DNA from: Acidimicrobiia bacterium
GTDB lineage: Bacteria; Acidobacteriota; Vicinamibacteria; Vicinamibacterales; UBA2999
Reading direction: 5' to 3'
Assembly (NCBI GenBank): GCA_038144855.1
Contig: JAYQOO010000005.1
Span: 9,248-73,247, forward strand
DNA: 64,000 nucleotides
Below, piece after piece: positions 15,744-49,412 of this stretch (within the stretch, counting starts at the first letter, position 1; each line of letters begins with the position of its first letter). The notes under the pieces were generated by a model. It did no database searches. It was not told where the DNA came from and saw only the letters and a program-made list of their open reading frames with translations. The translations under genes were made by a program, and so were the position numbers.

Positions 15744-15753
15744 GGGATAAACC

Positions 15754-19282: not shown

Positions 19283-20328
19283 CGCGCCGACCACAGCTGC
19301 GCCACCGCATCGACCAGCGCCGCAGCGACGATCTTGTTGCCGTCGACGCTCAGATGCATGCGATCGAACGAGACGTCAGTATCAAGCAGGTCAATGCGTT
19401 TGCCCATCGAGACGTAGGCCACGCGCGAATCGTTGCCATAGTGCTCACGGATCATCGTGGCCAGCGCCTGTTGCTGCGACGCATGCGTTGGTGGACCGTC
19501 GGCGTCGGCGTTGGGCTGCCCGACCACCAGGACCCGCTTGCCCAATGACGTCGAGTACTGAACGGCGCGATTGACCGACTCGCAGTAGCTCGACCACGGA
19601 CTTGGGCACCCGAGCGTGCCGGCCGCGCGCGGGGCGTGCTGCGGATCCGCACCGACATGGCGGAACTGTCGTTCAAGACTGGCGGCAACGCTGGCGGCAG
19701 CTTCCAGCGCCGATGCTGAGGTGCGATCCGCGAGGCTCGGACGAAACGTGGTCCGGGTTTCGGACTGGTCGTAGCCGGACGCCACACTGCCCGTCCTCAG
19801 CATCAGGGCTTTCTCGCTAAGCCAGAGTGGGAGGATGGGAAAGTAGCCGGTTGCCCGGAATATAGGGGACTGTTGCCGGACGGTAACCTGGTTCGGACTC
19901 AGGTCACCAAGCAGGTCGTTGTAACCCTCGTACAGAATGACCAGGTCGAAATCAAGATAGCCAAACTGCTGCAGGTTCGGCAGGAATGCGAACGCCCCTT
20001 CGGTGTTGTAGCCGAGGTTGATCACCGACCATTTCTGTGGACCGTGCGCGGCGTTCAGGTCGTGCTCGAGTAACGCCGGAATCGACTCGTCGGCTCTGAC
20101 GCCGTATCCGAACACCGTGCTGCCGCCGAGCATGACTGCCCGAACTTCGCCCGCCTGCTTCCGGCCGGCGACAGGGCCTCGGTAGCCCCAGCGGTTCAAG
20201 CCCGCTGACCGCTCGGCGCGGTGGTGCAGATACAGATCGAGCCCGAGCGCGGCCACGATCGTGGCTACGAACGCGAGCGCGCTTGCCAGCAACGCAAACA
20301 CCACGAACTTCTTGCGCGCCACTGTCAT
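19279..20328 (-). CDS. membrane-anchored SGNH/GDSL-like hydrolase (start revised)
   Basis: MTVARKKFVVFALLASALAFVATIVAALGL anchor, then VMLGGSTVFGYGV (block I-like) and YEGYNDL (block III-like GxND). ATGA overlap at 20325-20328. Confidence 0.6.
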   Translation of the reverse strand: MTVARKKFVVFALLASALAFVATIVAALGLDLYLHHRAERSAGLNRWGYRGPVAGRKQAGEVRAVMLGGSTVFGYGVRADESIPALLEHDLNAAHGPQKWSVINLGYNTEGAFAFLPNLQQFGYLDFDLVILYEGYNDLLGDLSPNQVTVRQQSPIFRATGYFPILPLWLSEKALMLRTGSVASGYDQSETRTTFRPSLADRTSASALEAAASVAASLERQFRHVGADPQHAPRAAGTLGCPSPWSSYCESVNRAVQYSTSLGKRVLVVGQPNADADGPPTHASQQQALATMIREHYGNDSRVAYVSMGKRIDLLDTDVSFDRMHLSVDGNKIVAAALVDAVAQLWSAR

Positions 20329-28078: not shown

Positions 28079-28792
28079 TCAGGAATGTTTGCCGTTCGTC
28101 GTCGTGCGTGGAGTCGACCGCAGGCGCTTCGGCGCGGTTTCGGGCTCCTTGCGCAGCGGGAATTGCTTGTCTTTCGGAACGTCGGCGCGGGCCAGATCCG
28201 CCGTGGGTTGCCCCGATCGGTCGAGCGTGGCGACGATCATCAAGTCGTATTCAACGTCGCCGTGAGCCGCGATCGGCCGCACCGGCATGCCGAGAAATTC
28301 GCGACCGCCATCCTGGTCGAAGATCGCCACCGGTTCCAGGCCCGATTCCTTCAGCGACAGGTATGCCAGTTCGGCGGCTTCGCCGGTGCCGTAGATCGCC
28401 ACCCGCTTGCCGGCCGCCGCGCAATCCTGCATCGCCTCCCGCAGGTGCTGGCGAACCTCGCCGTAAAGGTGGAGCGAATAGTCCATGAACTCGTACGTCA
28501 ACCGGGCCTTCTCGGCGATGCCACGAGGCGTGATCAGGTACGAGATGCGGTTGGGCTGAACGTTGACGCACTTGATGTAGCCCTTGTGGATCATCCGCTT
28601 CAGGTAGATGTTGGCGAGCCCCAGGGCGATGCCCAGTTGACTGGCCAGGCCGCGCTGGGTGACGCGCGAGTCCTCGTGCACGGCCTCCAGCAGTCGCAGG
28701 TCGCGATGTGCTTCGACGTCCATGGCTTTCACGTTCTGTCTTACGTTGTCGTTCAAGGACTTAGCGCCCGCCGGAAGCGGGCAGGACTTCAT
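28079..28792 (-). CDS. winged-helix (MarR-like, EPS-associated) regulator with a C-terminal Rossmann-like domain
   Basis: LLEAVHEDSRVTQRGLASQLGIALGLANIYLKRMIHKGYIK (wHTH), then GKRVAIYGTGEAAELAYLSLKESGLEPVAIFD. An alternative start is the ATG at 28723 (MDVEAHRDL). Confidence 0.65.
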   Translation of the reverse strand: MKSCPLPAGAKSLNDNVRQNVKAMDVEAHRDLRLLEAVHEDSRVTQRGLASQLGIALGLANIYLKRMIHKGYIKCVNVQPNRISYLITPRGIAEKARLTYEFMDYSLHLYGEVRQHLREAMQDCAAAGKRVAIYGTGEAAELAYLSLKESGLEPVAIFDQDGGREFLGMPVRPIAAHGDVEYDLMIVATLDRSGQPTADLARADVPKDKQFPLRKEPETAPKRLRSTPRTTTNGKHS

Positions 28793-28815: not shown

Positions 28816-29553
28816 CTAGTCGTGGTGATGCGAATGGTGGTGATCGCGAGGCTGTCGTGCGAGGGCCGCCTCGGCTTCGGCCCAGTCTTCAAAGCTGTCG
28901 ATGCTGATCGAGCGGTCGGCGGGCATCGGATAGGCCACCACCCGGGCGCCGTACATGCTGGGCGCCTCGCCGAACAGCACGCTGGTACGGCACGCGTAGA
29001 CGGCGCCATTCATCACGAAGGCCGGCGGCAGATCCTGACGGCGGTTGATGCGCTTGCGCACCGGCTCTCCGGTCACGAACAACGTCGCCTCACCCTGCGC
29101 ATCGACCCGCAGCATCCGCATCGGGTGCGCGTGCGCGGACACCTCGGTGACGCTGACCACCGAATCAGCGCCGGACAGTTCGAGCATGCGCAGCGCGCCG
29201 CTGATATCGATCGCCGAACGCAACGGCGATGTTGGCTGCAGGGTCACCACCACGTCAGCGGTGTAACCCTCGTGCTCCTGTAGCCAGCGCACGGCATGCT
29301 GCACCACCGGCAGGTGCGGCGTCTCATCGCGCGCCAACTCCGCCGGTCGCACGAATGGCACGTCGCAGCCGAGCGCGCGACCGGCGGCGGCAATCGCCGA
29401 ATCGTCCGTCGACAGGATCAACCGGTCGACCGCCGTATCGAGCGCCGCTTCCACGGTGTAGGCCAGCAGCGGCTTGCCGCCGAGCGGCTTCAGGTTCTTG
29501 CCGGGAACGCCTTTGGACCCGCCACGGGCGGTAATGAGGCCAAGGACTTTCAT
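28816..29553 (-). CDS. acylneuraminate-type cytidylyltransferase (NeuA/CMP-sugar synthetase family), His-rich C-terminal tail (start revised)
   Basis: MKVLGLITARGGSKGVPGKNLKPLGGKPLLAYTVEAAL. The tail is ...RDHHHSHHHD. ATGA overlap with the upstream stop (29550-29553). Confidence 0.8.
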   Translation of the reverse strand: MKVLGLITARGGSKGVPGKNLKPLGGKPLLAYTVEAALDTAVDRLILSTDDSAIAAAGRALGCDVPFVRPAELARDETPHLPVVQHAVRWLQEHEGYTADVVVTLQPTSPLRSAIDISGALRMLELSGADSVVSVTEVSAHAHPMRMLRVDAQGEATLFVTGEPVRKRINRRQDLPPAFVMNGAVYACRTSVLFGEAPSMYGARVVAYPMPADRSISIDSFEDWAEAEAALARQPRDHHHSHHHD

Positions 29554-30713
29554 CGCGAGGAATCGTGAAAGCGCTTCTGCGTGTAGAGCGGCGTCGCCGC
29601 CAGCAGATCGACAATCGTGTCGCTGGCCTGTTCCTTGAAGTAAATGTGCGACGGCTCGTAGCGGCCGTGCGCGAGTTGCGTCGCGATGGCCGCGCCGATC
29701 TCGGCGCCGTCGTGACCCACGTGGACGACGTGGTCGCCGCTCAGCCGGCTCTGCTGGCGGGCGCCGATGTTCACCACCGGCGTGCCAAGATACGAGCATT
29801 CCTTGATCCCGGCCGACGAGTTGCCTACCAGGCACGACGCGTGCGCCAGCAGCGCGATGAAATCGTTGGCCGGCACGTTGGTGATGAACCGCATGTGCGA
29901 CGTCAGGTCGGGATGCCGTTCCCGCATGTGACGAAGGCTGTCCGCCATCTCGCCGGTGCCCGCGTCGGGGTTCGGCCAGAACCAGATGGTCGGCAGATCG
30001 AACGACGACACGACTTTCAGTGTCGTCTCGAGGTGCGCCCGATTATTGGCGTCGGTCGTGACCGGATGCTGCACCACCATCAGGAACGGCTGCTCGATGT
30101 CGACGTCGTGACCGACGCCCAGGGCGTTGATCTGCTCGCTGGTAACGTTGGTGCTCACGTGAGCCGCCAGTTCCACATCGAGCGATCCGGTGTTGAAGAC
30201 GAACCTCGGATCTTCGCCCATCGCCAGCACCCGGCGCTCGGCATCGGCGTTGGTCACGAAGTGGAAGTGCGCGAGCTTGGTGATGGCGTGGCGCACGCTT
30301 TCGTCAATGCTGCCGGTGACGTCACCACCCTCGATGTGCGCGATCGTGATGTTGAGATACGCCGCCGCCATGGCGATGGCCAGTTGCTCGAAGCGGTCGC
30401 CGCAGATCACCACCACGTCGGGTTCGCTGGTGTAGAGATTGTTGGTGAACTCCAGCGCGGTGAGGCAGGCCGTCTTGGCCATGGCCACGTGGTTGCCGCC
30501 CTCGATCACGTTGAACAGCGAGGCCTCGACGTCGAAGCCGCCGGCGGCGATGTCCCCGGCGACGTGCTTGCTGTATTTGTCGAGCAGGATCGAGCCGCCA
30601 AGCATCAGCTTGAGATCGATGTCCGGATGCGAATGCAGCTTCCGGATCAGCATCTGGCTGCGACCGTAATAGGCGCGGCTGGTGATCGGGAAGCAGATCT
30701 TGCGTTTGGCCAT
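29550..30713 (-). CDS. UDP-N-acetylglucosamine 2-epimerase, hydrolysing type (NeuC-like)
   Basis: KICFPITSRAYYGR...VVICGDRFEQLAIAMAAAYLNITIAHIEGGDVTGSIDESVRHAITKLAHFHF. Confidence 0.8.
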   Translation of the reverse strand: MAKRKICFPITSRAYYGRSQMLIRKLHSHPDIDLKLMLGGSILLDKYSKHVAGDIAAGGFDVEASLFNVIEGGNHVAMAKTACLTALEFTNNLYTSEPDVVVICGDRFEQLAIAMAAAYLNITIAHIEGGDVTGSIDESVRHAITKLAHFHFVTNADAERRVLAMGEDPRFVFNTGSLDVELAAHVSTNVTSEQINALGVGHDVDIEQPFLMVVQHPVTTDANNRAHLETTLKVVSSFDLPTIWFWPNPDAGTGEMADSLRHMRERHPDLTSHMRFITNVPANDFIALLAHASCLVGNSSAGIKECSYLGTPVVNIGARQQSRLSGDHVVHVGHDGAEIGAAIATQLAHGRYEPSHIYFKEQASDTIVDLLAATPLYTQKRFHDSSR

Positions 30714-32173
30714 CAGACTCGTCCTGGAACGTGATTGATGACGACCGTCTTGAGCTCGGTGTAGACGTCGAGCGCCTCGGTGCCGGGCTCGCGGAAGCCG
30801 TTGCCGGAGTTCTTGACGCCGCCGAACGGCATGTGCGGACCGGCACCGTAGGTCGCGCCGTTGATCGACACCAGGCCGCCCTGGTACTGCGCAATGAACT
30901 CCTGCGCACGGTGCAGGCTGATGGTGTGAATCGCGCCGGTCAGGCCGTAGGTGGTGCCGTTGGCCAGGCGCATCGCCTCGTCAAAGCCGGTGACGCGGTA
31001 GAGACACGTCACCGGGCCGAACAACTCCCGCTGCGAGACCTCGTCGTTCGGCGAGACCCCCTCGAGCACGGTCGGCTGCATGTAGTAGCCGTCTCCGATG
31101 GCCGCCTGCCGGCCGCCGGCCACCAGCGTGGCGCCGCGCGAGACGGCGCCGTTGACCTGGCCGATCAGCCGATCGAGATTGGCGCGTGAAATCACCGGGC
31201 CACACTCATCGTCTGGGCCGGAGCCGAGCTTCACCCTCGCCACCTTCGCGAGGAACATCTCGCGGAACGCATCGTAAATGGCGTCGAACACGATGATCCG
31301 GCTGCCGGATGCGCAGCGCTGGCCCGCATCAATGAATGCCGACGCCACCGCGAGATCCGTCGCCAACTCGAGGTCGGCATCGTCACACACCACGAACGGG
31401 TTCTTGCCGCCGAGTTCGAGGCAGACCTTCGCCAACACGTCGCGCTCACTGACCATCTTCTGAATCAGTTTCCCGGTCGCCGACGAGCCGGTGAAGCTCA
31501 CCACCCCAACGCGGTGATCCTTGACCAGCGGCGCACCGGCATCTGGTCCAAATCCCTGCACGGCGCCATACACGCCGACGGGCAATCCCGCGTCCTTCAA
31601 GAGTTGGCCGAACGCCACCGCGGTGTACGGCGTGAGCTCATGCGACTTCACGACGACGGCATTGCCGCACAGCAGTGCCGGGAAGGCCTTCCACGCCACG
31701 CCGGCCAGCGGGCTGTTGAACGGCATGATGGCGGCGCAGATTCCAATCGGCGAGCGGAGCGTTTGCACGGTGCGATTGGGGATAGGGCTCGGCAGCGTCT
31801 TGCCGTAGAGGCGGCTGCCCTCGCCTTCCATGAACGTCGCCAGGTCCGCGGACGACCCCACCTCGGCAACCGCGTTCTTCCACGGCTTGCCGGTCTCGGC
31901 CTGCACGATCTCGCCGAACAGCGTTTCGCGCTCACGCAGCAACTGCGCCGCGCGGCCAAGAATCGCGCCACGCTTCGGCACCGGCATGCGGCTCCAGGCT
32001 TCCGCCGCGCCTGCCGCGGATGACAGCGCATGCGCCACTTCCGCGGCGCCGCCGCGAGCCACCTGTGCGATCACCTGATCGGTCGCAGGGTTGCGCTTCT
32101 CGAAGAACGCGGTGTCCTTCGGAGTCACCGCCACATCGGCGATCCAGTGCGAGACGATCTCTGGGTAGGACAT
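30713..32173 (-). CDS. NAD(P)-dependent aldehyde dehydrogenase
   Basis: ALDH motifs LELGGKNPFVV and FIDAGQRCASGSR (catalytic Cys). 486 aa. 1-nt overlaps on both sides. Confidence 0.85.
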   Translation of the reverse strand: MSYPEIVSHWIADVAVTPKDTAFFEKRNPATDQVIAQVARGGAAEVAHALSSAAGAAEAWSRMPVPKRGAILGRAAQLLRERETLFGEIVQAETGKPWKNAVAEVGSSADLATFMEGEGSRLYGKTLPSPIPNRTVQTLRSPIGICAAIMPFNSPLAGVAWKAFPALLCGNAVVVKSHELTPYTAVAFGQLLKDAGLPVGVYGAVQGFGPDAGAPLVKDHRVGVVSFTGSSATGKLIQKMVSERDVLAKVCLELGGKNPFVVCDDADLELATDLAVASAFIDAGQRCASGSRIIVFDAIYDAFREMFLAKVARVKLGSGPDDECGPVISRANLDRLIGQVNGAVSRGATLVAGGRQAAIGDGYYMQPTVLEGVSPNDEVSQRELFGPVTCLYRVTGFDEAMRLANGTTYGLTGAIHTISLHRAQEFIAQYQGGLVSINGATYGAGPHMPFGGVKNSGNGFREPGTEALDVYTELKTVVINHVPGRV

Positions 32174-34113
32174 TACTTGCGAACCGTGGAGCGCGACACG
32201 ACCGCGCGGGCAATGCCGGCGGCATCGAGGCCATGATGCGCGAGCACATCAACGTTTGAACCGCAGGCCGGAATTTCCGTCAGGCCGATTGCCGACACCT
32301 CCGAACGCACCCCGTTGCGCGCCATCGCGGCGGCAATCATGACGCCCTGGCTGTATTCGACGTAGTGGTTGTCGAGCGTGAGGACCTGCTTGTAGGCGCC
32401 GAGCGTCTTGACCCACGTGTCGTCGACGCGATTCAGCCATGGCAGGTCGATCACCGCGGCGGAAATGCCCTGTGCGGCGAGTTCGTCCGCGGCCTTCCAC
32501 GCGTTGGTGAGCAGGATGGTGCCATAGCCGATGATCGCCACGTCCGTGCCATGCCGGAGCGTCAGGCCGCGACCGACATGCAGCGCGTAGTCGGCCGGCA
32601 TGGCGTAGGGCAGGTCGAGCGGCACGTTGCAGAACCGCAGGTAGGTGCTCGCCGGATTCTGCTCAACCGCCCAGCGAATCGCCAGGCGCGCTTCCTTTTC
32701 GCTGCATGGCTCGAACGCGAGCAGGCCGGGCACCGCGCCAACGGCGGAAATGTCGCGCACCGACTGGTGCGAATGGCCAGGCCCGCTGGGCACGAGCCCG
32801 GCGAGCGTCGCTGTATAGATGATCTTCGTCTTCTCGGTCGCGTTGTTGTAGATGTGCTCGTTGGCGCGCGTCGAGAGGAAGCACGCGAACGAGTGCACCA
32901 CCGGCAACATGCCGCGCAGGGCCATCCCGCCGGCGGCCGACACCATGTGCTGCTCGGCAATGCCGCACTCGATGAACCGCTCCGGCAGTTCGGCCTTGAA
33001 GGCCTCGATGCCGCAGTCCGACAACAAGTCCGCGTCCATCACGATGATGTCCTTGCGGTCCCGGGCCATGGCGAGAAGTTCGTCGCCGTAGGCGAGCACG
33101 ATCTTTTCCGGCTGCTTCGGCGCAATGCGCACCGGCAGCGGCGCGGATTCCAACGCCACACGCGGCTGGCCGAGCGATTCAAGCCGGTCGTTGACGCGGG
33201 CAATCAACTCGCGCGTCGCCTTGACGTAGTTGTCGAGTGTCGGCGCGCCGGCGTGGAAGTGGTAGGTCTGGTCGCCGCACGCGACGCCGTGCATGAAGGA
33301 CACGCCCTTGCCCTTGATGGTGTCGGCAATGAACACCTTCGGTTTGTCGGTGACGGTGTCGAAATGCGCGAGCGCATCGCGCAGCACGGCGAAATCGTGA
33401 CCATCGCCGCGACGCACTTCCCACCCGAAGATGCGGAACTTGGCTTCGAGATCGCCAAGGTCGCTGACCGCCGCCACCGCCGTGTCCGACTGGAACTTGT
33501 TGTGATCGACGATGACGATGATGTCGGAGAGCCGCTCGTTGGCGACCGGCTGCAGCGACTCCCAGATCTGGCCTTCCTGCAGCTCGCCGTCACCGGTCAT
33601 CACCACGATCCGCCCCTTGCGGCCGGTGTAGCGATTGGCGCGCGCCATGCCATAGGCCTTCGAGATGCCCATGCCGAGCGACCCGGTATTGGTGGCAATG
33701 AACGGCGTGCTGACATCGGGATGCCCCGGTAGTCCATTCAGCTGCCGCAGCTTCGGCAGCAAGGCGAAGTCGAGCTTCTCCGCCGCAATCAGCAGCGAAT
33801 AGAGGGCCGGAACGTCGTGGCCTTTCGAAGAGAAGTAAACGTCCGCATCCGCGCTGTCGCCGTTCGGATCGTTGAGCGCCTCGGTCCACAGCCACGTGAT
33901 GATGTCGGTCGAGCTGAAGCTCGAGCCGATGTGGCCGGACCCGGCCTGCATGATCATGAACAACGTGTTGATGCGACAGAGATCCGACACGACCTCCGCG
34001 CGCGCGATCGGATCGCTGATGCCGCCGCGCACCGCGCGAAACACCTCGCGGGACACGAACGACAACGAGTCGTCACCAACTAACGCACGATCGGAGAAAT
34101 CTTTTTCACCCAT
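32173..34113 (-). CDS. transketolase-family TPP enzyme (N- and C-terminal halves fused)
   Basis: SGHIGSSFSSTDII, TPP-binding GDGELQEGQIWES, pyrimidine-binding half FIECGIAEQHMVSAAGGMA. 646 aa. Confidence 0.85.
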   Translation of the reverse strand: MGEKDFSDRALVGDDSLSFVSREVFRAVRGGISDPIARAEVVSDLCRINTLFMIMQAGSGHIGSSFSSTDIITWLWTEALNDPNGDSADADVYFSSKGHDVPALYSLLIAAEKLDFALLPKLRQLNGLPGHPDVSTPFIATNTGSLGMGISKAYGMARANRYTGRKGRIVVMTGDGELQEGQIWESLQPVANERLSDIIVIVDHNKFQSDTAVAAVSDLGDLEAKFRIFGWEVRRGDGHDFAVLRDALAHFDTVTDKPKVFIADTIKGKGVSFMHGVACGDQTYHFHAGAPTLDNYVKATRELIARVNDRLESLGQPRVALESAPLPVRIAPKQPEKIVLAYGDELLAMARDRKDIIVMDADLLSDCGIEAFKAELPERFIECGIAEQHMVSAAGGMALRGMLPVVHSFACFLSTRANEHIYNNATEKTKIIYTATLAGLVPSGPGHSHQSVRDISAVGAVPGLLAFEPCSEKEARLAIRWAVEQNPASTYLRFCNVPLDLPYAMPADYALHVGRGLTLRHGTDVAIIGYGTILLTNAWKAADELAAQGISAAVIDLPWLNRVDDTWVKTLGAYKQVLTLDNHYVEYSQGVMIAAAMARNGVRSEVSAIGLTEIPACGSNVDVLAHHGLDAAGIARAVVSRSTVRK

Positions 34114-34115
34114 GG

Positions 34116-34144
34116 CTTTGCACTTTGAACCTGAAACTTTGAAC
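34116..34144. repeat. ACTTTGAAC repeated twice (plus a partial copy) in the SDR-transketolase spacer
   Basis: CTTTGCACTTTGAACCTGAAACTTTGAAC between the stop at 34153 and the start at 34113. Confidence 0.6.
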
Positions 34145-34152
34145 GGCGAGCG

Positions 34153-34983
34153 CTAGCGAGCCGTCCATCCGCCGTCGACCACGACGGTGGCGCCGGTCAT
34201 GTATGACGAGGCGTTCGCCGCCAGGAACAGTACTGCGCCGTTGTAGTCGGAATCAGTCGCCATGCGGGCCAGCGGCGTACGCTGCTCGTAGCCCGACACG
34301 AACTCGGGCGCATGCCCATCTTCCTTCACGCCACCAGGCACCAGCGTGTTGGCGCGTATACCGAACGGCGCGCCGTACTCGGCCAGCCAGCGCGTGAAGT
34401 TCAACACGCCCGACTTCGCCACGCTGTAACCGACCGGCTTGAAGTAGGTGGCGCCGGCCGCCCGCTTGTATTCGTAGAGCGACTGATCCGGCGTCACCAC
34501 GCCGTAGGTCGACGACACGTTGACGATGCTGCCGGTGGTCTTCCCGGCGGCGCGATAGTGGCGGATGAACGCCTGCGACGCGAAGAACGCGGTCTTCAGG
34601 TGCGAATCGATCATCGTGTCCCACGCCACTTCCGGGTAGTCCTCGAAGCGGCCGTTCTCACTGCCGGCGGCCGCGGGCGACGACCCCATGCCGGCGTTAT
34701 TCACCAGCACCGTCGGCGCGCCCAGCGCGGCGACCATGGCGTCGATCGCGCGGTCGGTCTCGGCCTTGACCGACAAGTCGGCCAGTTCCACGTGAATGCG
34801 CGCCCCGGCCTTCACAAGCGGCGCGAACAGCTCGCGGTCACCGGCCACATCGACGGCGCCCACTGCCGCGCCGGCGCCCGCAAGGGTCCGGACGTATTCG
34901 CGGCCGAGCCGCCCGAGGGCTCCGGTCACAATGGCCACCTGACCGTCCAGGCCGAACATTCCGGCAAGCATTTCGTCGCGCAT
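34153..34983 (-). CDS. SDR-family oxidoreductase (start revised)
   Basis: GQVAIVTGALGRLG (TGxxxGxG) and YSVAKSG (YxxxK). The ORF-track GTG start at 35130 overlaps a TATAAT box and would translate the repeat-containing leader. ATGs at 34983, 34971 and 34959 are all possible. Confidence 0.75.
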   Translation of the reverse strand: MRDEMLAGMFGLDGQVAIVTGALGRLGREYVRTLAGAGAAVGAVDVAGDRELFAPLVKAGARIHVELADLSVKAETDRAIDAMVAALGAPTVLVNNAGMGSSPAAAGSENGRFEDYPEVAWDTMIDSHLKTAFFASQAFIRHYRAAGKTTGSIVNVSSTYGVVTPDQSLYEYKRAAGATYFKPVGYSVAKSGVLNFTRWLAEYGAPFGIRANTLVPGGVKEDGHAPEFVSGYEQRTPLARMATDSDYNGAVLFLAANASSYMTGATVVVDGGWTAR

Positions 34984-35011
34984 CTTCTTTATTTTGTGTA
35001 TTTGCGGGAAT

Positions 35012-35046
35012 CTCAGGCACCGAGGCACGGTAGGCACCTCAGGCAC
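35012..35046. repeat. four AGGCAC (minus strand GTGCCT) units at 8-9 nt spacing in the leader of the SDR gene
   Basis: CTCAGGCAC CGAGGCAC GGTAGGCAC CTCAGGCAC. Confidence 0.8.
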
Positions 35047-35121
35047 TTGAGATACGCCTCCGGCACGGCCAGTCACAGGCGCAGGCGCAACCGGGGCGGT
35101 TCGTTCAAGATCTGAACGGGT

Positions 35122-35149
35122 ATTATACACGTCCAGTTCATGGAATGAA
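35122..35149 (-). promoter_or_regulatory. candidate sigma70-type promoter for the 34983-to-28816 sugar operon
   Basis: Minus strand reads TTCATT, 16 nt, TATAAT (perfect -10 at 35127-35122), in an 80-nt locally AT-rich gap. Not validated. Confidence 0.3.
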
Positions 35150-35238
35150 CGAAGAAGTCACAGAGCGGAATTGTTGTGTTCAAAACGTGAACGCGGCGCC
35201 GAATGGCGCCACGGGGACGTGCTGCTGATCGGCCGGCC

Positions 35239-36225
35239 CTAGACGATCGCCCGGCCGGCGCCGGCGTAGGAGCGCTTCTCCGCCACGACCCGGTCGATGA
35301 TTTCGTCGAGACCGACCTTGGGCACGTAGCCAATGGCCTTGTTGATCTTGGTCAGGTCCGGCACGCGACGCGGCATGTCTTCAAAGCCCGCCTCGTACGC
35401 CTGGTCGTAGGGAATGATCTGGATCTGGGAAGTACTGCCGGTGCGCGCCTTGATGCGTTCAGCGAGACCAAGGATCGTCACTTCCTCCGGGTTGCCGACG
35501 TTGAAGACCTGGCCGATCGCCGAGGGCTCCACCATCAGCTTCAGCAGTGCCCCGACGACGTCGCCGACATAGGTGAAGCTGCGCGACTGCGTACCATCGC
35601 CGAACACCGTGATGGGTTCGTTGTTCAACGCCTGCCGCACGAACGTCGGCACCACCATCCCGTACTGCCCCGTCTGGCGCGGCCCCACGGTGTTGAAGAA
35701 GCGCATGACGATGACCGGCTGCTTGCTTTCCTTCCAGTAGGCCAGCGCCAGGAACTCGTCGAGCGCCTTGCTGCAAGCATACGCCCAACGGTGGCGCGTC
35801 GTGGCGCCCATTACCAGGTCGGTCTCTTCGTTGAACGGCACCTTGGCGCTCTTGCCGTAGACCTCCGAGGTCGAGGCGATGAACACCAGCTTCTTCTTTT
35901 TCGCCGCATGACGCAGGATGACCTCGGTGCCGTGCACGTTGGTCTCGATGGTATGGACCGGCTTTTCGACGATCAGCTTCACGCCCACCGCCGCCGCCAG
36001 GTGAAAGATCACGTCGGCACGGTCCACCATCTCCGCGACCAGCGGATCGTTGAAGACGGTGTCGATGGTGTAGTGGAAATTCGGGTGGCCCTTGAGGTGC
36101 GTGATGTTGTCGATGGAGCCGGTCGACAGGTCGTCAAGCGCGTAAACCTGGTGACCGCCATCGAGCAGCGCCTCGGCCAGGTGCGAGCCAATGAAGCCCG
36201 CGCCGCCCGTAATCAAAATTCGCAT
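35239..36225 (-). CDS. NAD-dependent nucleotide-sugar epimerase/dehydratase (UXS/ArnA-C-like)
   Basis: MRILITGGAGFIGSHLAEALL...YACSKALDEFL (YxxxK). Confidence 0.85.
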   Translation of the reverse strand: MRILITGGAGFIGSHLAEALLDGGHQVYALDDLSTGSIDNITHLKGHPNFHYTIDTVFNDPLVAEMVDRADVIFHLAAAVGVKLIVEKPVHTIETNVHGTEVILRHAAKKKKLVFIASTSEVYGKSAKVPFNEETDLVMGATTRHRWAYACSKALDEFLALAYWKESKQPVIVMRFFNTVGPRQTGQYGMVVPTFVRQALNNEPITVFGDGTQSRSFTYVGDVVGALLKLMVEPSAIGQVFNVGNPEEVTILGLAERIKARTGSTSQIQIIPYDQAYEAGFEDMPRRVPDLTKINKAIGYVPKVGLDEIIDRVVAEKRSYAGAGRAIV

Positions 36226-36280: not shown

Positions 36281-37222
36281 TCAGCAGGGCCAGCCATTCC
36301 CGGGTACCTGATTGCGTTCCAGCCCCTCGATCGCCGCGCGCCCCATGGCCAATTGCGCTTCCTCGGTGCTGCCGCCAATGTGCGGCGTGCCCATAAAAGT
36401 GAGAAGCTTCAAAAGGCGGGGATGCGCGTCAGGCTCTTTCTCATAGGCGTCACAGGCCGCCCCTGCAAGGTGTCCGCGCTCAAGGGCGTCCGCCAGGGCA
36501 TCCTCGTTGACAAGACCTCCACGGGCGGCATTGATCAGGAATGTTCCCGGCCGCATCAGCGCTAGCTCGGCGGCACCCAGCATCCCCCTCGTCGACGCGT
36601 CAAGGGGCACATGAAGTGAGACAAGATCGGATTGAGCGAGCAACTCCTGCAGCGGCACTGGCGTGACCTGATTCGCTGCGTAGAAGTCAGGGTAGTCGCG
36701 AACGTCGTGGACGAGCACGCGGCAACCGAACGGCTTGAGCATCGCCACGAGGTCCTGTCCCACGAAACCGCAGCCTATGATGCCGATCGTGCGGCCAGTC
36801 AGTTGCCGACCGACAAGCTTCTGCCAGTTTCCCTCACGAAGCAGGGAAGTGGTCTCGGGCACACGATGTAGCAGCCCGATAGCAAACGACAGTGTGAGCT
36901 CGGCGACAGACCGGCGATTAACCCCTCCGGTCCAGCCGAGTCTGATGCCACGCCTCGTGAGAGCGTCGATGTCGAGCCCGTCAAGGCCGACACCATACTT
37001 GCTGACTATCTTCAGCTCAGGCAGTTGCGATAGGACCCAGTCGTCAACACGCTCGAGTCCGATAATCGCACGGTCGTGGCCACGCAAGAGTTCTACCAGA
37101 GCGTCCCCAGCAAGCAGCGCGGACGAGTCGCTGAATGTGACGTTAGGATAGCGAGCCGTCAATTCCGCTCGCAGCGCGGTGTTACGGGCGAAAGAACGAG
37201 CAGCTACAGCAATTTTGGTCAT
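36281..37222 (-). CDS. D-isomer-specific 2-hydroxyacid dehydrogenase family (start revised)
   Basis: GRTIGIIGCGFVGQDLV, NAARGGLVNEDAL, TPHIGGSTEEAQ. ATGA overlap at 37219-37222. Confidence 0.8.
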   Translation of the reverse strand: MTKIAVAARSFARNTALRAELTARYPNVTFSDSSALLAGDALVELLRGHDRAIIGLERVDDWVLSQLPELKIVSKYGVGLDGLDIDALTRRGIRLGWTGGVNRRSVAELTLSFAIGLLHRVPETTSLLREGNWQKLVGRQLTGRTIGIIGCGFVGQDLVAMLKPFGCRVLVHDVRDYPDFYAANQVTPVPLQELLAQSDLVSLHVPLDASTRGMLGAAELALMRPGTFLINAARGGLVNEDALADALERGHLAGAACDAYEKEPDAHPRLLKLLTFMGTPHIGGSTEEAQLAMGRAAIEGLERNQVPGNGWPC

Positions 37223-38055
37223 AGCGTAAGGTAACGGTCGAGAGCATTTTGCCACGTGGGCATCACATAGCCGGCACGCGCGAGCTTGGCGTTGCTCAGC
37301 GCCGCATACTGCGGCCGAGCGGCTCGCAGAGAGACGTCATGGATCGACACGGGACTCAAGGCCGTCACGGGCGCACCGAGCTTGGAAGCGATCTCCATGC
37401 CGACGTCAAACCAAGTTCCATGTCCGGCGTTGACACAGTGATAAACGCCCCACTGTGGTTGGGTCTCAAGCATGAATGCTGACGCATCTGCGACATCGGT
37501 TACGAAGCTCGGTGAAACGACTCGGTCAAAAAATACTGGCGGCGGCACACCAGACCTTACCCCATTGACAATGCGATCGATGCTGCTCTTGCGGTTGGGA
37601 CCGCCGAACAGGCTTTCGACGCGAAGCACGTAGTGCCGCGGCGTTTCCGCCGCGAACCATTCGCCGACCAGCTTTGACTGCGCGTAAACGCTGCGCGGCT
37701 CCGGCGCGTCCGCCTCCGAATACGGCGTGCTGCTCGTGCCGGCAAAGACGAAGTCGGTGCTGTAGTGCAGGAACACCGCGTCGAGGGCCGCGGCCGCGCG
37801 CGACAGCGTGCCGACCGCCATGGCGTTCACCTCGAAGGCGGTCACCTGGTCGTCCTCGGCCTGATCGACGTTGTTGTAGCCGGAGCAGTTGACGATGGCC
37901 TCGGGAGCCAGTCGGGCGACCGCGTCGCGCACGGCGGCGTGGTGCGTGAGGTCCACGTCGGCCCGGACCCAGGCAGTGACGTCGTGGCTGGCCCGGAGTC
38001 TCGCCACCATGGCCTGGCCCAGCTGGCCCGCGGCGCCGACAATCAGCACCTTCAT
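37219..38055 (-). CDS. rfbD: dTDP-4-dehydrorhamnose reductase-like (RmlD family)
   Basis: MKVLIVGAAGQLGQAMVARL...YAQSKLVGEW. 278 aa. Confidence 0.7.
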   Translation of the reverse strand: MKVLIVGAAGQLGQAMVARLRASHDVTAWVRADVDLTHHAAVRDAVARLAPEAIVNCSGYNNVDQAEDDQVTAFEVNAMAVGTLSRAAAALDAVFLHYSTDFVFAGTSSTPYSEADAPEPRSVYAQSKLVGEWFAAETPRHYVLRVESLFGGPNRKSSIDRIVNGVRSGVPPPVFFDRVVSPSFVTDVADASAFMLETQPQWGVYHCVNAGHGTWFDVGMEIASKLGAPVTALSPVSIHDVSLRAARPQYAALSNAKLARAGYVMPTWQNALDRYLTL

Positions 38056-40551: not shown

Positions 40552-41967
40552 TCAGCCGCGCAATGGCAGTGAGACGACGAACGTTGAGCCGGCTGGGGAC
40601 GAGCGCGCGAGCGTCACGTCGCCGCCATGTGCGCGAGCGATCCAGCGGGCCAGCGCCAGGCCAAGGCCGGCGCCCTCCCTGGCACTGGAACGACGTGAGG
40701 CGTCGCCGCGGAAGAAACGTTCGAAAATCTTTTCGCGGATCTCCGCCGGTATGCCCGCCCCCTGGTCCTTCACGGCCACGGCATACCCTGTATCCGTCTG
40801 ATCGAGCTCCACACGCACGGAACTGTCGGGGGGCGTGTGCCGACAGGCGTTGTCGACCAGGTTCACAACCATCCGCCGGATCAGTTCCTCGTCGCCGTTG
40901 AACGCCGCCGAAGGCACCAGGCCCACCTCGATCGATATCCGTCGAGTCGCCGCGATCACGCGGGCCGCTCTCACGACCTCGTCGATCACTTCGTCGAGAT
41001 ACATCGCCATCGATCGCACCGGGTAGGTGCCGGCATCCGCACGGGCCAGCGTGAACATGTCGTCAACGACTCGCGACAGCCGGGCCACCTGCTGTTCCAC
41101 GATCGCGAGGGCGTCGCGGTACTCAGACTCTTCGCGATGGGGTTGCTGCAAGGTGACCGCCGCCGCCGTGCGCGTGGTCGTCACCGGCGTGCGCAGTTCG
41201 TGGGAAGCGTCGGCCATGAACTGCCGCTGTTGCACGAGCGACCCCTCGACTCTTCCAAGCAGTTCGTTGAAGGTCTCAGCCAGCTTGCCAAGTTCATCGC
41301 GCGGGTTGGCTACCGGCAATCGCTCGCCGAGGTTCTCCACGCCGATTCGTCGCGCCCTGTCGGCCATCGCCACCACAGGAGCGAGGCTCTTCCGCGCCAG
41401 GAACGATCCGCCGAGCACCGCGAGGGCAAGCGCGAGCGGAACCACGTACGCGAGGCTGCGCCGCAGGAACTCGAGTTCCTCGTCCATCGGCTCGAGGTCG
41501 GCGCCGACCACCACGATGTATTTGACAGGAGGGATCGAGACGCTTCGAAAGGCGAGACGATGGCGATCGTCGCCGTCGGATTCGATGACCGTCTGAAGCA
41601 GTTCTTCGGAATCGGGGATCTCGGCGAGTGGCGGCAGCGCGATCGCCAGTTCACCGTCGCGCCCGCTCTCAGCAATCAGCCGGCCCTGCAGGTCGTAGAT
41701 GGCGAGCATCTGTTCGCTGGACGCCTGTTCAGCCGCAGTGCTCCTGGCCGCGTCCGCGTAGTCTTGCCCCTCGCCGAGATCGTTCGAAAGCGACGTCATG
41801 GCAATCCGGACGCCGGCGTGCAGATTGTCGTCCACGCGCACGAACAGCGAGCGCGCGAGCAGGAAGTAGATCAGCCCGCAAACGGTGCCCAGCGCCACGG
41901 CCAGCACGCTGACGTAATACAGCGTCAGCCTGCCGCGAACGCTTTCAATCTTCAGCGCCGTCAGCAT
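40552..41967 (-). CDS. sensor histidine kinase (two TM segments, HAMP, HisKA, HATPase)
   Basis: H-box ADASHELRTPVTT; G-boxes VKDQGAGIP and GAGLGLALARWIARAHGG. Confidence 0.85.
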   Translation of the reverse strand: MLTALKIESVRGRLTLYYVSVLAVALGTVCGLIYFLLARSLFVRVDDNLHAGVRIAMTSLSNDLGEGQDYADAARSTAAEQASSEQMLAIYDLQGRLIAESGRDGELAIALPPLAEIPDSEELLQTVIESDGDDRHRLAFRSVSIPPVKYIVVVGADLEPMDEELEFLRRSLAYVVPLALALAVLGGSFLARKSLAPVVAMADRARRIGVENLGERLPVANPRDELGKLAETFNELLGRVEGSLVQQRQFMADASHELRTPVTTTRTAAAVTLQQPHREESEYRDALAIVEQQVARLSRVVDDMFTLARADAGTYPVRSMAMYLDEVIDEVVRAARVIAATRRISIEVGLVPSAAFNGDEELIRRMVVNLVDNACRHTPPDSSVRVELDQTDTGYAVAVKDQGAGIPAEIREKIFERFFRGDASRRSSAREGAGLGLALARWIARAHGGDVTLARSSPAGSTFVVSLPLRG

Positions 41968-42637
41968 TGCTCACGTCGAGCATGTATCCGGAGCCTCGTC
42001 GCGTATGAATCAGCTTCACGGCATGGCCATTGTCAATTTTTCTGCGCAGGCGTTGCACGTACACTTCGATCAAGTTCGACATCGGATCGAAGCTGTCGTC
42101 CCAGACATGCTCGGCAATGTCACCACGACCCGCGATCTCGCCGCGACGCCGCGCGAGGTACTCGAGCAGCCCGTATTCCTTTGTGGTGAGTTGGATGCGC
42201 TTCCCGGCGCGCTCGACGGTGCGGGCCTGGATATCGACGGTGAGATCGTCGATCGCGATCACCGGCGAAGCCAGCGCGGGTCCCCTCCGCAACAGCGCGC
42301 GCACCCGCGCCAGCAGCTCGGGAAAGTGGTACGGCTTCGACAGGTAGTCGTCGGCGCCGGCGTCGAGTCCGTCCACTCGCTGATCAGGTTCTCCTCGGGC
42401 AGTGAGCATCAGAACTGGTGTCGCCACGCCCTCGTCTCGCAAGCGTCCGCACAACTCGAGTCCACTCATGCCGGGAAGCATCACGTCGAGGACCAGCAGA
42501 TCGTAGTCGTTGATCGACGCCTGTTCGAATGCGGCGTCGCCATCCCCCGCGACGTCCACCGCGTACGAGTGCTCGCGCAGTCCTTTCGCGAGGACGGCCG
42601 CTGCGACGGGCTCGTCTTCAACTACCAAAATTCTCAT
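41945..42637 (-). CDS. OmpR-family response regulator (start revised)
   Basis: MRILVVEDEPVAAAVLAKGL...DLLVLDVMLPGMSG...LTTKEYGLLEYL...IHTRRGSGYML. ATGA overlap at 42634-42637. Confidence 0.9.
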   Translation of the reverse strand: MRILVVEDEPVAAAVLAKGLREHSYAVDVAGDGDAAFEQASINDYDLLVLDVMLPGMSGLELCGRLRDEGVATPVLMLTARGEPDQRVDGLDAGADDYLSKPYHFPELLARVRALLRRGPALASPVIAIDDLTVDIQARTVERAGKRIQLTTKEYGLLEYLARRRGEIAGRGDIAEHVWDDSFDPMSNLIEVYVQRLRRKIDNGHAVKLIHTRRGSGYMLDVSNADGAED

Positions 42638-43614
42638 GAGGTGGAGCGGCGGTCGGCGAACTCGAGTCCCTGGGCGATCTTGGCCTTGATCTTTCTCACG
42701 AAGCGTTCCGTCTGTTGCGGTGTGTATCCGCCGGCGCGAAACGCGTCGCGCCACTGTTCATCGCTCAGGCGGCTCAGCAAGCGGCAGGTCCAGGCGACAT
42801 CTTCCAGGCTCACCGTCTTGTTCACGTCGCGATAGATGCCGCTGTAGTCAAACTTCGGCCGCTGTTCACTGTCGACCTCTCTGATGAACTGCTGGCTCTC
42901 AAACCCCTCGATGTCGTTGCGCGTGCCTTGTCCGAATCCTCGCAGCCGAAACCATTTCAGGATGCCGGGGTACTTCGTGCGTCCAAGCGATGCACCCAGA
43001 TCGCGCACCACGAACACACGGCTCACGCCGTCAACCGGCGTGGCCAACTCGTAGATCTTGTTGTTTGATGTTTTCCAGTCCCAATTATTGAAGAGCAAGT
43101 TGGCGACGATGAGTCCGCCGTACTCGCGTCGACCAACAAACGGATTCTCGTACCATGACCAGTCGCCCGTCGCTTTCTTCCCCTCGAGATCCGGACGGAA
43201 CCGGCCGGCCTCTTGCGGGCCTGACACCTGCCCCTTCAACGGCCATTCCTTGAGGTAATACGTCGGAGGCTGGTGAAATCCAATCGCCCAGAGAATGCGC
43301 GACACCACCACTTCGGTCTGCGCTTCGGGCCCGGTCTTCACGCTCCACTCAACGCCCTTGCTGTCTCGAACGTCGAAGCCCGGACTCCACCCTGTGGTGT
43401 CGGCCAGGACGAACTCGAACGCGGTGTCGGTGGGCAGTAGTTCCCTGCCTCCAGGACCGTGAAAGAGATCTCGCCGCTCGAGATCACGCGGTTCCTGCCA
43501 TAACTGGTCGATCGTGGCGGCTGGATCCGGCGCGAGCTTCACGTCGCGCATCATCCGACCGCATCCCGCAAGCGCGAGCACACACGCGACGACGATCAGG
43601 CTGTAGCGCTTCAT
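42634..43614 (-). CDS. lipoprotein with protein-kinase-like motifs (hypothetical; start revised)
   Basis: MKRYSLIVVACVLALAGC (lipobox LAGC). EWSVKTG...TEVVVSRILWAIGF (Lys/Glu pair-like). NNWDWKTSNN (DxKxxN catalytic-loop-like). VRDLGASLG (DFG-like). ATGA overlap at 43611-43614. Confidence 0.55.
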   Translation of the reverse strand: MKRYSLIVVACVLALAGCGRMMRDVKLAPDPAATIDQLWQEPRDLERRDLFHGPGGRELLPTDTAFEFVLADTTGWSPGFDVRDSKGVEWSVKTGPEAQTEVVVSRILWAIGFHQPPTYYLKEWPLKGQVSGPQEAGRFRPDLEGKKATGDWSWYENPFVGRREYGGLIVANLLFNNWDWKTSNNKIYELATPVDGVSRVFVVRDLGASLGRTKYPGILKWFRLRGFGQGTRNDIEGFESQQFIREVDSEQRPKFDYSGIYRDVNKTVSLEDVAWTCRLLSRLSDEQWRDAFRAGGYTPQQTERFVRKIKAKIAQGLEFADRRSTS

Positions 43615-44498
43615 TTGCCCCTCGATGTTGGATTGCACGAGAACCGCGCAAAGGTGCCCGGCTGTCCCTTGCCGCCGCCTTCGCCAGCCAGGAACACCGT
43701 GTTGTCGCCGCCAAGCGCGACGCCTTCGCCTTGCGGCTCCCGCAACGAGCGCAGGTCGATCGTGGCCGCGGCCTTCGACGCGCCTGTCAGCAGATCCGAT
43801 GGATAGAACATCAACGCCTCTTTTGTCCGCAACGCGATCCATTCCCCGTCAGGAGACACCGAGCCGTCGGTGATTCGCTCCGCCTGACTCGGCTTTGAGG
43901 ACAACTGCACGACTCGTTCCAACTTCACCGTGGCGCCGGGCTGCAGTTGCGCCGGGAATCGGTAGATGGCGATCGGGCCTGTGTCGCCCTTGGTCACGAT
44001 GTACAACCGTCCGTTCGCAATCAGGAGCGCCTCGGCGTCGTGTCCGCCGTCTGGATAGGTGGCGTGAATCGCTTCCGCCGCCACTGTTCGGCTTGACGCT
44101 TCAGGTTCGATGGCTCGATAAATCGTGACGCGCGAACGCTTCCCTTCGTTGTCGCCGATGTCGCCGATGTAGAGGCACAATCCTGCCGCGCACGGTCCAA
44201 CAGCTACCGCTTCCCAGTCCTGGACTGATGCGCCAGTCACGGCGACCTGCGTTGTGACGCTGCCCCGCTCATCGAGCGCCGTGAGGATCGGCTTGCCCGA
44301 ATCGTTGTGCGCCCAGAGCCGTCCAGGAACTTTCTTGCTGATGGCGAGGCCACTTGCCTCAGCAAGGCCCGCTGGGCGCGCGAGGGTTCCACTCGGGACA
44401 CATTGCGTGGTCTGCCCGGCACCAGCCGACGTCGCGATGAATGCGATGGCCGCCGCGATGACGGCGCTACGAATACGTGTTTTCACAATCAACTCCAC
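43611..44498 (-). CDS. secreted beta-propeller-like hypothetical protein
   Basis: Signal-like N-terminus IRSAVIAAAIAFIATSAGAG, with repeated SG/DSG/DNG beta-strand motifs. The family was not firmly recognised; it is SdiA-regulated/phytase-like by feel. Confidence 0.5.
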   Translation of the reverse strand: MELIVKTRIRSAVIAAAIAFIATSAGAGQTTQCVPSGTLARPAGLAEASGLAISKKVPGRLWAHNDSGKPILTALDERGSVTTQVAVTGASVQDWEAVAVGPCAAGLCLYIGDIGDNEGKRSRVTIYRAIEPEASSRTVAAEAIHATYPDGGHDAEALLIANGRLYIVTKGDTGPIAIYRFPAQLQPGATVKLERVVQLSSKPSQAERITDGSVSPDGEWIALRTKEALMFYPSDLLTGASKAAATIDLRSLREPQGEGVALGGDNTVFLAGEGGGKGQPGTFARFSCNPTSRGK

Positions 44499-44604
44499 GA
44501 GCTCACCGTATCGCTTGCAACATGAATGCTGAATGAACCCACCGGCTCAGCCGTGCGGCAACTTGGCTCCGGTGTTGCTATCGTTGGGCGTCAAGGAGAC
44601 GTAC

Positions 44605-47317: not shown

Positions 47318-47821
47318 TTAGAAGTAGATCTTTGCGGAGAGGATCAGCAGGCCGGACACGAGGCCCGCAATGGTGTGGTGCTCGCGGTTATGAATGGCTC
47401 GCTGCCAACTGAACACGCGCTCGACTCTTGGCGCGCGCTTCTCGGCATACGCGTCATAGGCGTCGCCAAACTTCTCACGCAGATGCGCCTCTTCACTCTT
47501 CATCGCCGCCGTCAACGTCAGCGCCAGGTAGGCGATGACGATAGCCGCGACAACGCCATTGTTTGCGACGATGGCGAGACCGATACCGATCAGTGATGAG
47601 CCGAGGTACAGGGGATGCCTGGTGTAGCGATACGGTCCAGATTGCGTGACCTCTTTGCTCTTTTCGAGGTGCCCCGCCGCCCACAACCGAATCAACTCGC
47701 CGATCGCCGCCACTGTCGCGCCAAGGACGAGCGACATCAGGTTCGGAGTCGCGAGCCACATGACCACGGCCGCAAAGACAAATCCGAGAGTGACGCGCCA
47801 ACGCGCGAGCAGGCGAATCAT
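47318..47821 (-). CDS. ICMT / phospholipid-methyltransferase-family membrane methyltransferase
   Basis: SGPYRYTRHPLYLGSSLIGIGLAI...EEAHLREKFGDAYDAY. ATGA overlap with the waaC stop (47818-47821). Confidence 0.75.
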   Translation of the reverse strand: MIRLLARWRVTLGFVFAAVVMWLATPNLMSLVLGATVAAIGELIRLWAAGHLEKSKEVTQSGPYRYTRHPLYLGSSLIGIGLAIVANNGVVAAIVIAYLALTLTAAMKSEEAHLREKFGDAYDAYAEKRAPRVERVFSWQRAIHNREHHTIAGLVSGLLILSAKIYF

Positions 47822-49337: not shown

Positions 49338-49344
49338 GGAATAA

Positions 49345-49412
49345 GGGGTCGGGACTATTTTCGTCTATGACGAGCCGCTTGTCGCGGTCGAGAGGAAATT
49401 AGTCCCGACCCC
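49345..49412 (-). promoter_or_regulatory. structured intercistronic element: 13-bp perfect inverted repeat with a 42-nt loop between hldA and hldC
   Basis: GGGGTCGGGACTA (49345-49357) pairs with TAGTCCCGACCCC (49400-49412). One arm covers the last hldA codons and its TAA; the other ends 8 nt before the hldC ATG. A nested smaller hairpin sits in the loop. Confidence 0.5.

Follow-up and report, generated by a model that had tools for sequence, protein, structure and literature searches.

Nonulosonic acids (sialic, legionaminic and pseudaminic acids and the deaminated sialic acid Kdn) are key surface sugars, and to our knowledge the only tailoring described for them is acylation, methylation, epimerisation and hydroxylation. 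Two described pathways lie closest to the operon reported here. One is the NeuC-NeuB-NeuA pathway of Escherichia coli K1, Neisseria meningitidis and Campylobacter jejuni, and the other is the Kdn pathway of Bacteroides thetaiotaomicron, which comprises a Kdn-9-phosphate synthase, a Kdn-9-phosphate phosphatase and a CMP-Kdn synthetase. We analysed a 64,000-nucleotide stretch of contig JAYQOO010000005.1 from a Vicinamibacterales (UBA2999) genome, GCA_038144855.1 (the whole stretch is hereafter the window), in which a NeuC-type epimerase and a NeuA-like cytidylyltransferase (CTase) are tightly packed on the minus strand at 28816-34983 with a short-chain dehydrogenase (SDR), a fused transketolase (TK) and an aldehyde dehydrogenase (ALDH). 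The classical NeuC-NeuB-NeuA pathway lacks SDR, TK and ALDH, whereas the window locus has all three and lacks NeuB. We conclude that SDR, TK and ALDH form a widespread, undescribed add-on to the nonulosonic-acid pathway, one that probably reshapes the sugar ahead of its activation, and not a NeuB-free route. Stated generally, as a NeuB-dependent pathway equipped with an SDR-TK-ALDH tailoring trio, this reading is one in which we have good confidence.

The operon, as given by the open reading frame (ORF) list, consists of:

34153-34983, minus strand: SDR, a classical short-chain dehydrogenase of 276 aa
34114-34152, minus strand: SDR-TK spacer of 39 nt, about four degenerate heptamers
32173-34113, minus strand: TK, a fused transketolase-like thiamine diphosphate (TPP) enzyme of 646 aa
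30713-32173, minus strand: ALDH, an NAD(P)-dependent aldehyde dehydrogenase of 486 aa
29550-30713, minus strand: NeuC-type, a hydrolysing UDP-GlcNAc 2-epimerase of 387 aa
28816-29553, minus strand: CTase, a NeuA-like CMP-nonulosonate synthetase of 245 aa with a His-rich C-terminal tail

An initial annotation of this DNA had described five packed, co-directional genes, and the ORF coordinates confirm the arrangement, with overlaps of 1 nt at 32173, 1 nt at 30713 and 4 nt at 29550-29553. The identities it gave all five genes proved correct in Pfam and NCBIfam scans, and the motifs it quoted (GDGELQEGQIWES in TK, GQRCASGSR in ALDH and HHHSHHHD on the CTase) are all in the translations. The SDR matches adh_short (E 1.6e-28, 100 bits) as well as adh_short_C2, and its translation contains the motifs TGxxxGxG (VTGALGRLG), NNAG and YxxxK (YSVAK). 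The ALDH matches Aldedh (E 5e-144, 480 bits) and carries both catalytic motifs, ELGGKNP and GQRCASGSR. The nearest characterised relatives and structures of the SDR include KduD and gluconate 5-dehydrogenase, with scores below the family cut-offs, and the best NCBIfam models for ALDH are betaine-aldehyde and 2-ketoglutarate-semialdehyde dehydrogenases, again all below cut-off. Although both enzymes lie near these sugar-acid and semialdehyde dehydrogenases, the similarity is superfamily-generic and the scores fall far short of the cut-offs.

The other two enzymes are those shared with the NeuC-NeuB-NeuA pathway. The product of 29550-30713 scores 331 bits against TIGR03568 (NeuC_NnaA; cut-off 236) and 49 bits against the non-hydrolysing wecB model, and on these scores is predicted to be a NeuC-type hydrolysing epimerase, set apart from WecB. 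The CTase reaches 73.6 bits with CTP_transf_3 (PF02348; cut-off 22.6), and its motifs ARGGSKG..KN, QPTSPLR and RRQDLP align with those of the Vibrio CMP-Neu5Ac (N-acetylneuraminic acid) synthetase. Among solved structures it is nearest to CMP-Neu5Ac synthetases (115, 108 and 91 bits), with KdsB at about 40 bits. NeuC and the CTase are thus predicted to carry out the first and last steps of a sialic-acid-type pathway. An identity as PseF or KdsB was rejected, as the equivalog cut-offs were not reached (PseF, the nearest equivalog, 146 bits versus 206; KdsB models 28-45 versus 155-281). A Pse/Leg-type (5,7-diamino-9-deoxy) pathway was also rejected: the window scans yielded no aminotransferase, none ranks among the 25 commonest families in the locus census described below, and the LegB model scored 152-163 versus 475.

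The initial annotation had also reported that the window contains no synthase of the NeuB/KdsA type, and this was upheld. Pfam scans of all substantial coding ORFs between 652 and 61885 gave no match to PF03102 (NeuB) or DAHP_synth_1, and tblastn with five diverse NeuB queries, covering the 64 kb in all six frames, returned nothing at E<=1e-3. From this absence it had been proposed that the trio replaces NeuB: the TK would add a C2 ketol unit to the N-acetylmannosamine (ManNAc) released by NeuC, the SDR and ALDH would oxidise C1, and the CTase would activate the resulting 4-acetamido-4-deoxy-oct-2-ulosonic acid, in a route independent of phosphoenolpyruvate (PEP) and of NeuB.

Comparison with related loci points elsewhere. 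We assembled 77 loci (individual loci are cited by L numbers) from a genome-collection scan with the window's TK, mapped the window proteins onto them by tblastn and read 10 kb of context on each side of the match. The conserved core across related loci is SDR, TK, ALDH and CTase. The best TK relatives are in metagenome-assembled genomes (MAGs) of Vicinamibacterales and other Acidobacteriota. SDR-TK synteny is found in more than 50 loci, and more than 40 loci from acidobacterial MAGs share the full five-gene order, so the co-occurrence expected of functionally linked genes is borne out. Outside Acidobacteriota the core occurs in Alphaproteobacteria (Pseudorhodoplanes, Rhodopseudomonas, Parvularculaceae and Bosea), Chthoniobacter, Vampirovibrionaceae, Oligoflexales, Dehalococcoidia and a Giovannonibacteria MAG, and the module thus spans at least seven phylum-level groups. 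That the trio travels with the CTase over this range supports the earlier suggestion of an unusual CMP-activated acidic sugar made with TK, SDR and ALDH.

Clustering of the ORFs of distant loci revealed an additional conserved protein of about 360 aa, which is a NeuB-family synthase (PF03102 plus SAF). Of the non-acidobacterial loci in which TK is joined by SDR, CTase or both, all 11 have NeuB next to the module; among the 36 well-flanked acidobacterial loci 14 do, in the order NeuC-NeuB-CTase or NeuC-NeuB. The order NeuC-NeuB-CTase of the classical pathway is kept in the window's sister clade. The 64-kb window lacks a complete NeuABC-type cluster, in which PF03102 would be encoded alongside NeuC and NeuA; the sister clade and other phyla do have the PF03102 gene. 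In a Pfam census covering 126 ORFs of eight loci outside Acidobacteriota, NeuB, TK, CTP_transf_3 and adh_short tied as the most frequent family, and DegT aminotransferase was not among the 25 most frequent. A search with an acidobacterial NeuB protein was saturated by the NeuB-containing clade (all 120 listed matches are 77-99% identical), and the two contexts read were of the same module; an exact-match search with the window's TK gave only a 7.8-kb contig. The trio and the CTase therefore form one conserved unit with a NeuB-type synthase.

NeuC is the less constant partner, being absent from the non-acidobacterial modules with the sole exception of L054. Its place is taken by a second NeuB type, often together with a KdsC/YrbI-type HAD phosphatase (TIGR01670 108 bits, cut-off 107; Kdn-9-phosphate phosphatase model 91 bits, below cut-off). 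The sugar source is interchangeable: NeuC in Acidobacteriota, the second NeuB type and phosphatase elsewhere. In gene content the non-acidobacterial version resembles the B. thetaiotaomicron Kdn pathway, having a NeuB-family synthase, a phosphatase and a CTase but no NeuC; it differs by the added trio, and the window has the NeuC version. We infer that the trio acts on the free nonulosonic acid, after any dephosphorylation, as this is the stage common to both versions.

These observations bear directly on the proposal that the trio stands in for NeuB. In its favour, NeuB is missing from the 64-kb window and from 22 well-flanked NeuB-less acidobacterial loci, the lost phosphate site of the TK (see below) is compatible with free ManNAc and hydroxypyruvate as substrates, a D-2-hydroxyacid dehydrogenase encoded upstream in the window's clade could make hydroxypyruvate, and the conversion of L-sorbose through L-sorbosone to 2-keto-L-gulonate offers a chemical precedent. 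However, a NeuB-type synthase does accompany the set elsewhere: it is ancestral to the module and accompanies the orthologous trio in all the other phyla as well as in the basal acidobacterial clade, the NeuB-less loci being derived. The proposed route would make superfluous a NeuB that is a nearly universal neighbour of the module; where NeuB is present, there is mostly just one CTase. With NeuC lacking in almost every non-acidobacterial module, the hexosamine that it releases can hardly be the general TK acceptor. The NeuB-less loci L026, L037 and L063 do not have the 2-hydroxyacid dehydrogenase, and it is established that ManNAc has the wrong configuration and substituent at C2 for a canonical TK acceptor. 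No residue of TK, SDR, ALDH, NeuC or CTase tracks the absence of NeuB. We consider this route, though chemically feasible, very improbable, also for the NeuB-less clades.

The history of the loci was read from a neighbour-joining tree of the TK. NeuB is present in all outgroup phyla and in the basal acidobacterial clade, and NeuB-less loci were derived at least three times: in a large clade that includes the window, in L037 with L063, and in the single case of L026. In none of the five protein alignments does a column distinguish loci with NeuB from those without it, and thus there is no sign of a functional change upon NeuB loss. The simplest reading of the NeuB-less loci is that a NeuB encoded outside them serves the pathway; in the window's clade the gene has left the locus and most probably lies at another site in the genome. 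This also shows how an enzyme that is 'absent' in one window can be explained by comparison of loci and not by new chemistry.

Loss of NeuB from the locus could instead mean that the pathway is a remnant, in which NeuC and the CTase of the window's clade no longer make a nonulosonic acid. Against this, the ORFs are intact with their 1-nt and 4-nt overlaps, and the arrangement is conserved in the 22 well-flanked NeuB-less acidobacterial loci. Additionally, the ratio of nonsynonymous to synonymous substitution rates (dN/dS) between the window and eight species-level relatives of its clade is 0.09-0.30 for all five genes, with 0.10-0.22 for NeuC and 0.13-0.26 for the CTase. Within this NeuB-less clade all five genes have thus stayed under purifying selection and NeuC and the CTase are still in use, and we give a remnant pathway almost no credence.

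The TK comprises three Pfam domains (Transketolase_N, Transket_pyr and Transketolase_C), its best solved match is human TK (188 bits), and it falls below the NCBIfam transketolase equivalog cut-off (357 versus 488). Module TKs from all phyla were aligned with human TK, whose numbering is used here. The cofactor and catalytic residues H37, H77, H110, D155, N185 and H258 are invariant, and the TPP motif GDG(X)nN and the cofactor-activating Glu are kept, ECGIAEQHM aligning with human ECYIAEQNM. In contrast, the substrate-phosphate site and D424, the residue of transketolase that reads the C2 hydroxyl of the acceptor, are replaced in every module TK of all phyla sampled, as follows:

R318 (phosphate site): V, I or F
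S345 (phosphate site): D
H416 (phosphate site): L (F in L073)
R474 (phosphate site): N or S (I in L073)
D424: P

A canonical TK recovered in the same scan (L077) retains all five residues, and the module TKs share the signature motif L[AS]G[LV]xPxGPGHSHQS. Compared with human TKT (PDB 4KXU) and with short or split transketolases, the module enzymes thus belong to the same three-domain fold family with cofactor residues kept and the phosphate site replaced, a pattern that marks them as a distinct subfamily. Since the phosphate-binding residues are replaced, these TKs should act on non-phosphorylated substrates. Databases label them merely 'transketolase' or 'DXS', and the loss of all phosphate-binding residues is a signature by which such loci can be flagged.

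We propose the following chemistry for the trio. NeuC and NeuB would yield Neu5Ac in Acidobacteriota, and in other phyla the second NeuB type with the KdsC-like phosphatase would yield a Kdn-like acid. The SDR would oxidise the omega-1 (C8) hydroxyl, creating a terminal HOCH2-CO-CHOH motif, from which the phosphate-site-less TK would take off C8-C9 as a TPP-bound glycolaldehyde unit. The ALDH would then convert the C7 aldehyde to a carboxylate, giving a 7-carbon 2-ulosaric acid: 5-acetamido-3,5-dideoxy-hept-2-ulosaric acid, or its 5-hydroxy analogue from Kdn. The CTase would form the CMP derivative of this C7 diacid, and a TagB/BFO_1060-like transferase would add the sugar to the glycan, where it may be a terminal residue read by Wzt_C.

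A role of the SDR as C8 oxidase is suggested because KduD and gluconate 5-dehydrogenase oxidise the omega-1 carbon of sugar acids, and a role of the ALDH as C7 oxidase because the semialdehyde dehydrogenases it resembles make dicarboxylates. TK donors need the D-threo (3S,4R) ketose configuration. By our derivation from the D-glycero-D-galacto configuration, 8-keto-Neu5Ac and 8-keto-Kdn read from C9 are D-threo ketoses, with C7 to the left and C6 to the right in the turned Fischer projection; the ring oxygen is on C6, as would suit an enzyme without D424. In Acidobacteriota the genes stand in the order SDR-TK-ALDH, matching the proposed order of steps. Two variants were rejected on chemical grounds: Kdo (3-deoxy-D-manno-octulosonic acid) as substrate of the trio, since cleavage would break the ring carbon C6, and Dha (3-deoxy-D-lyxo-heptulosaric acid) as product, since by our derivation the configuration would be L-arabino and not D-lyxo. 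As a proposal for substrate, step order and product, this trimming scheme taken by itself is tentative and somewhat unlikely to be right as a whole.

Within a NeuB-dependent pathway the trio might also perform some other chemistry: action on the CMP-sugar, chain extension, use of a 2-keto acid as a decarboxylating TPP donor, or synthesis of a small substituent such as glycolyl. The linkage evidence is identical for this and for trimming, and no computed result fixes the substrate or the order of steps. However, chain extension leaves the ALDH without a role, and a substituent would need a ligase or acyltransferase, whereas no such enzyme accompanies the module as a conserved gene. We found no scheme other than trimming that uses all three enzymes in a logical order and agrees with TK donor stereochemistry. 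We regard other tailoring chemistry as unlikely, though a serious contender.

Several points weigh against our preferred account of a NeuB-dependent pathway with trimming. No NeuB was found in the window or within 10 kb in the 22 well-flanked NeuB-less acidobacterial loci (the window's clade, L026, L037 and L063), and its presence elsewhere in the genome is an assumption. NeuB was lost from the locus repeatedly while NeuC was kept, and could be dispensable. L070 and L054 show no ALDH within 10 kb. The trimming chemistry is built on weak family similarities below cut-off and on stereochemical reasoning, it does not account for an acceptor of the C2 unit, and the replacement of S345 by Asp is odd for an enzyme binding an anionic sugar acid. 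Our literature searches found no bacterial heptulosaric sugar of this kind, and the term 'ulosaric' gave only plant papers on Dha and rhamnogalacturonan II (RG-II) and reviews. Even so, we judge our best overall explanation moderately probable: a NeuB-dependent pathway whose synthase gene lies at another place in the genome, equipped with a tailoring trio for which trimming is the chemistry we propose. That the trio edits the carbon skeleton of a sialic-type sugar by transketolase chemistry, the CMP-sugar being an undescribed monosaccharide, is a possibility we place just on the doubtful side of even; the editing would be either trimming of the C9 acid to the C7 diacid or, far less probably, PEP-free synthesis from ManNAc in NeuB-less clades such as the window's.

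No account of TK, ALDH and SDR grouped with NeuB, NeuC and NeuA turned up in full-text searches. A conserved transketolase-type carbon-carbon enzyme in nonulosonic pathways would add carbon-skeleton editing, and probably a new acidic sugar, to them. If this is true, these phosphate-independent transketolases, which occur in at least seven phylum-level groups, would represent a new type of enzyme for glycan tailoring. Soil Vicinamibacterales carry the module in abundance, and it was read whole in two cultured isolates, Bosea sp. AAP35 (L080) and Rhodopseudomonas pentothenatexigens JA575 (L067). In Rhodopseudomonas palustris BisA53 (86% identity) and Blastochloris viridis the TK homologue alone was seen; searches for literature on the BisA53 O-antigen returned only lipid A papers.

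The operon lies in a surface-polysaccharide locus that occupies 1-38 kb of the window and encodes GT4 and PMT_2 glycosyltransferases, a carbamoyltransferase, a methyltransferase, a deacetylase-like protein, a TagB/TagF-like transferase, Wzm, and Wzt with Wzt_C. By this content it looks like a Vicinamibacterales-type, ABC-transporter-dependent O-polysaccharide locus. The neighbours considered here are:

10172-11671 (stop-to-stop), minus strand: TagB/TagF-like transferase (Glyphos_transf, E 9e-10)
11628-13790 (stop-to-stop), minus strand: ABC transporter pair of Wzt, with the Wzt_C binding domain, and Wzm (ABC_tran plus Wzt_C, ABC2_membrane)
28079-28792, minus strand: MarR-type regulator associated with exopolysaccharide (EPS), directly downstream of the CTase (HTH_24; TIGR04176 MarR_EPS below cut-off)
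35239-36225, minus strand: UXS/ArnA-like epimerase, an upstream gene found in the window's clade only
36281-37255, minus strand: D-2-hydroxyacid dehydrogenase, an upstream gene found in the window's clade only
37219-38055, minus strand: RmlD-like reductase (rmlD 218 bits, cut-off 224), found in the window's clade only

The TagB/TagF-like protein is a candidate transferase for the CMP-sugar. Homologues lie directly after CTase or NeuC in L078, L041, L042, L057, L037 and L063, with the position in L078 being after CTase, and both the window protein and the L078 homologue weakly match NF046086, the BFO_1060 family (44-50 bits, cut-off 200). This family comprises TagB-like transferases of Tannerella forsythia for Pse/Leg derivatives and is implicated in nonulosonic acid transfer (PMC5420450). 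The likeness to Tannerella Tanf_01245/BFO_1060 thus amounts to a weak family match and a predicted role. A protein of about 560 aa stands directly after TK in L067 (11926-13608), Bosea L080 (11939-13654), L065, L069 and L075, with homologues elsewhere in L060, L064 and L066. It matches only Capsule_synth (KpsC/KpsS-like), and weakly, and may be the candidate sugar transferase of those lineages in place of the TagB-like enzyme.

The Wzm/Wzt_C pair also flanks the module in L078 and in Bosea L080. A terminal beta-Kdo caps certain ABC-transporter-dependent O-antigens (Klebsiella O12 and Raoultella, WbbB) and is recognised by Wzt. The window is alike in having an ABC-transporter locus, a Wzt_C domain and a CMP-activated keto-acid sugar, whereas the transferase family differs; by analogy, the window's sugar may serve as a cap.

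The MarR-type regulator is syntenic in most acidobacterial loci. The UXS-like, 2-hydroxyacid dehydrogenase and RmlD-like genes are absent from the other NeuB-less lineages L026, L037 and L063, which rules them out as a general replacement of NeuB, and they probably serve other sugars of the polymer. Within the polysaccharide locus, 16149-19375 holds a pair of large minus-strand ORFs that overlap (about 690 and 712 aa) and have no Pfam match. Elsewhere in the window, several coding-like ORFs at 41918-44546 and 60383-61885 fall in no Pfam family.

Some loci depart from the common arrangement. In L018, about 5.3 kb (13181-18507) are inserted between NeuC and CTase; reading of the translations indicates an acyltransferase-3-like membrane protein and three large polytopic membrane proteins, and the insertion was rejected as an in-locus replacement of NeuB because no synthase is among them. 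In L037, ALDH and NeuC read as one ORF of 893 aa (12012-14693) and are separate genes in the sister locus L063; the two are either truly fused in L037 or misassembled. The Pseudorhodoplanes locus L061 has, besides NeuB, a gene resembling aldolases of the dihydrodipicolinate synthase (DHDPS)/NanA family between CTase and TK (6528-7574).

The His-rich tail of the CTase (window 28816-28845), which had been singled out as an oddity, is indeed present, and is common to the nearest relatives (L047, L002, L004, L005, L022 and L059) at differing lengths (DHHHHHHHDDE in L047, for instance). Remoter orthologues lack it, which marks it as a recent, length-variable, low-complexity extension.

The operon's sole intergenic gap is the 39-nt spacer at 34114-34152, in which, in agreement with the earlier description of a repeat-filled spacer, four degenerate heptamers can be read (GTTCAAA GTTTCAG GTTCAAA GTGCAAA), although Tandem Repeats Finder gives the window's own spacer no score. 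Many relatives have a heptanucleotide tandem array just 5' of the TK start, with unit and copy number varying by species. Clean arrays occupy the spacer position in L022 (9943-9996, AGTTAAA x7.9) and L027 (9945-9996, AGCTGAT x7.4), and an array is found at the same position in L003, L004, L007, L008, L020, L026 and L053. L001 and L002 are nearly spacer-free upstream of TK, and the window's copy of the array is short and degenerate. The spacer could be a contingency or translation-tuning element for TK.

Upstream of the SDR, a 255-nt intergenic region (34984-35238) is AT-richer than its surroundings and contains an exact TATAAT on the minus strand at 35122-35127. Consensus scans for promoters and terminators gave nothing above shuffled expectation, and the promoter scan did not flag the TATAAT region; on its position and composition, the region may be the operon promoter.

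Further along the window, 47818-58523 holds a lipid A/core block followed by the genes gap, pgk and tpi on the opposite strand. The lipid A/core genes, at 47.8-55.3 kb, encode two GT9 heptosyltransferase-like proteins, a PfkB kinase, LpxL, LpxK and the Kdo transferase WaaA, and their presence indicates that the organism makes Kdo by the usual route.

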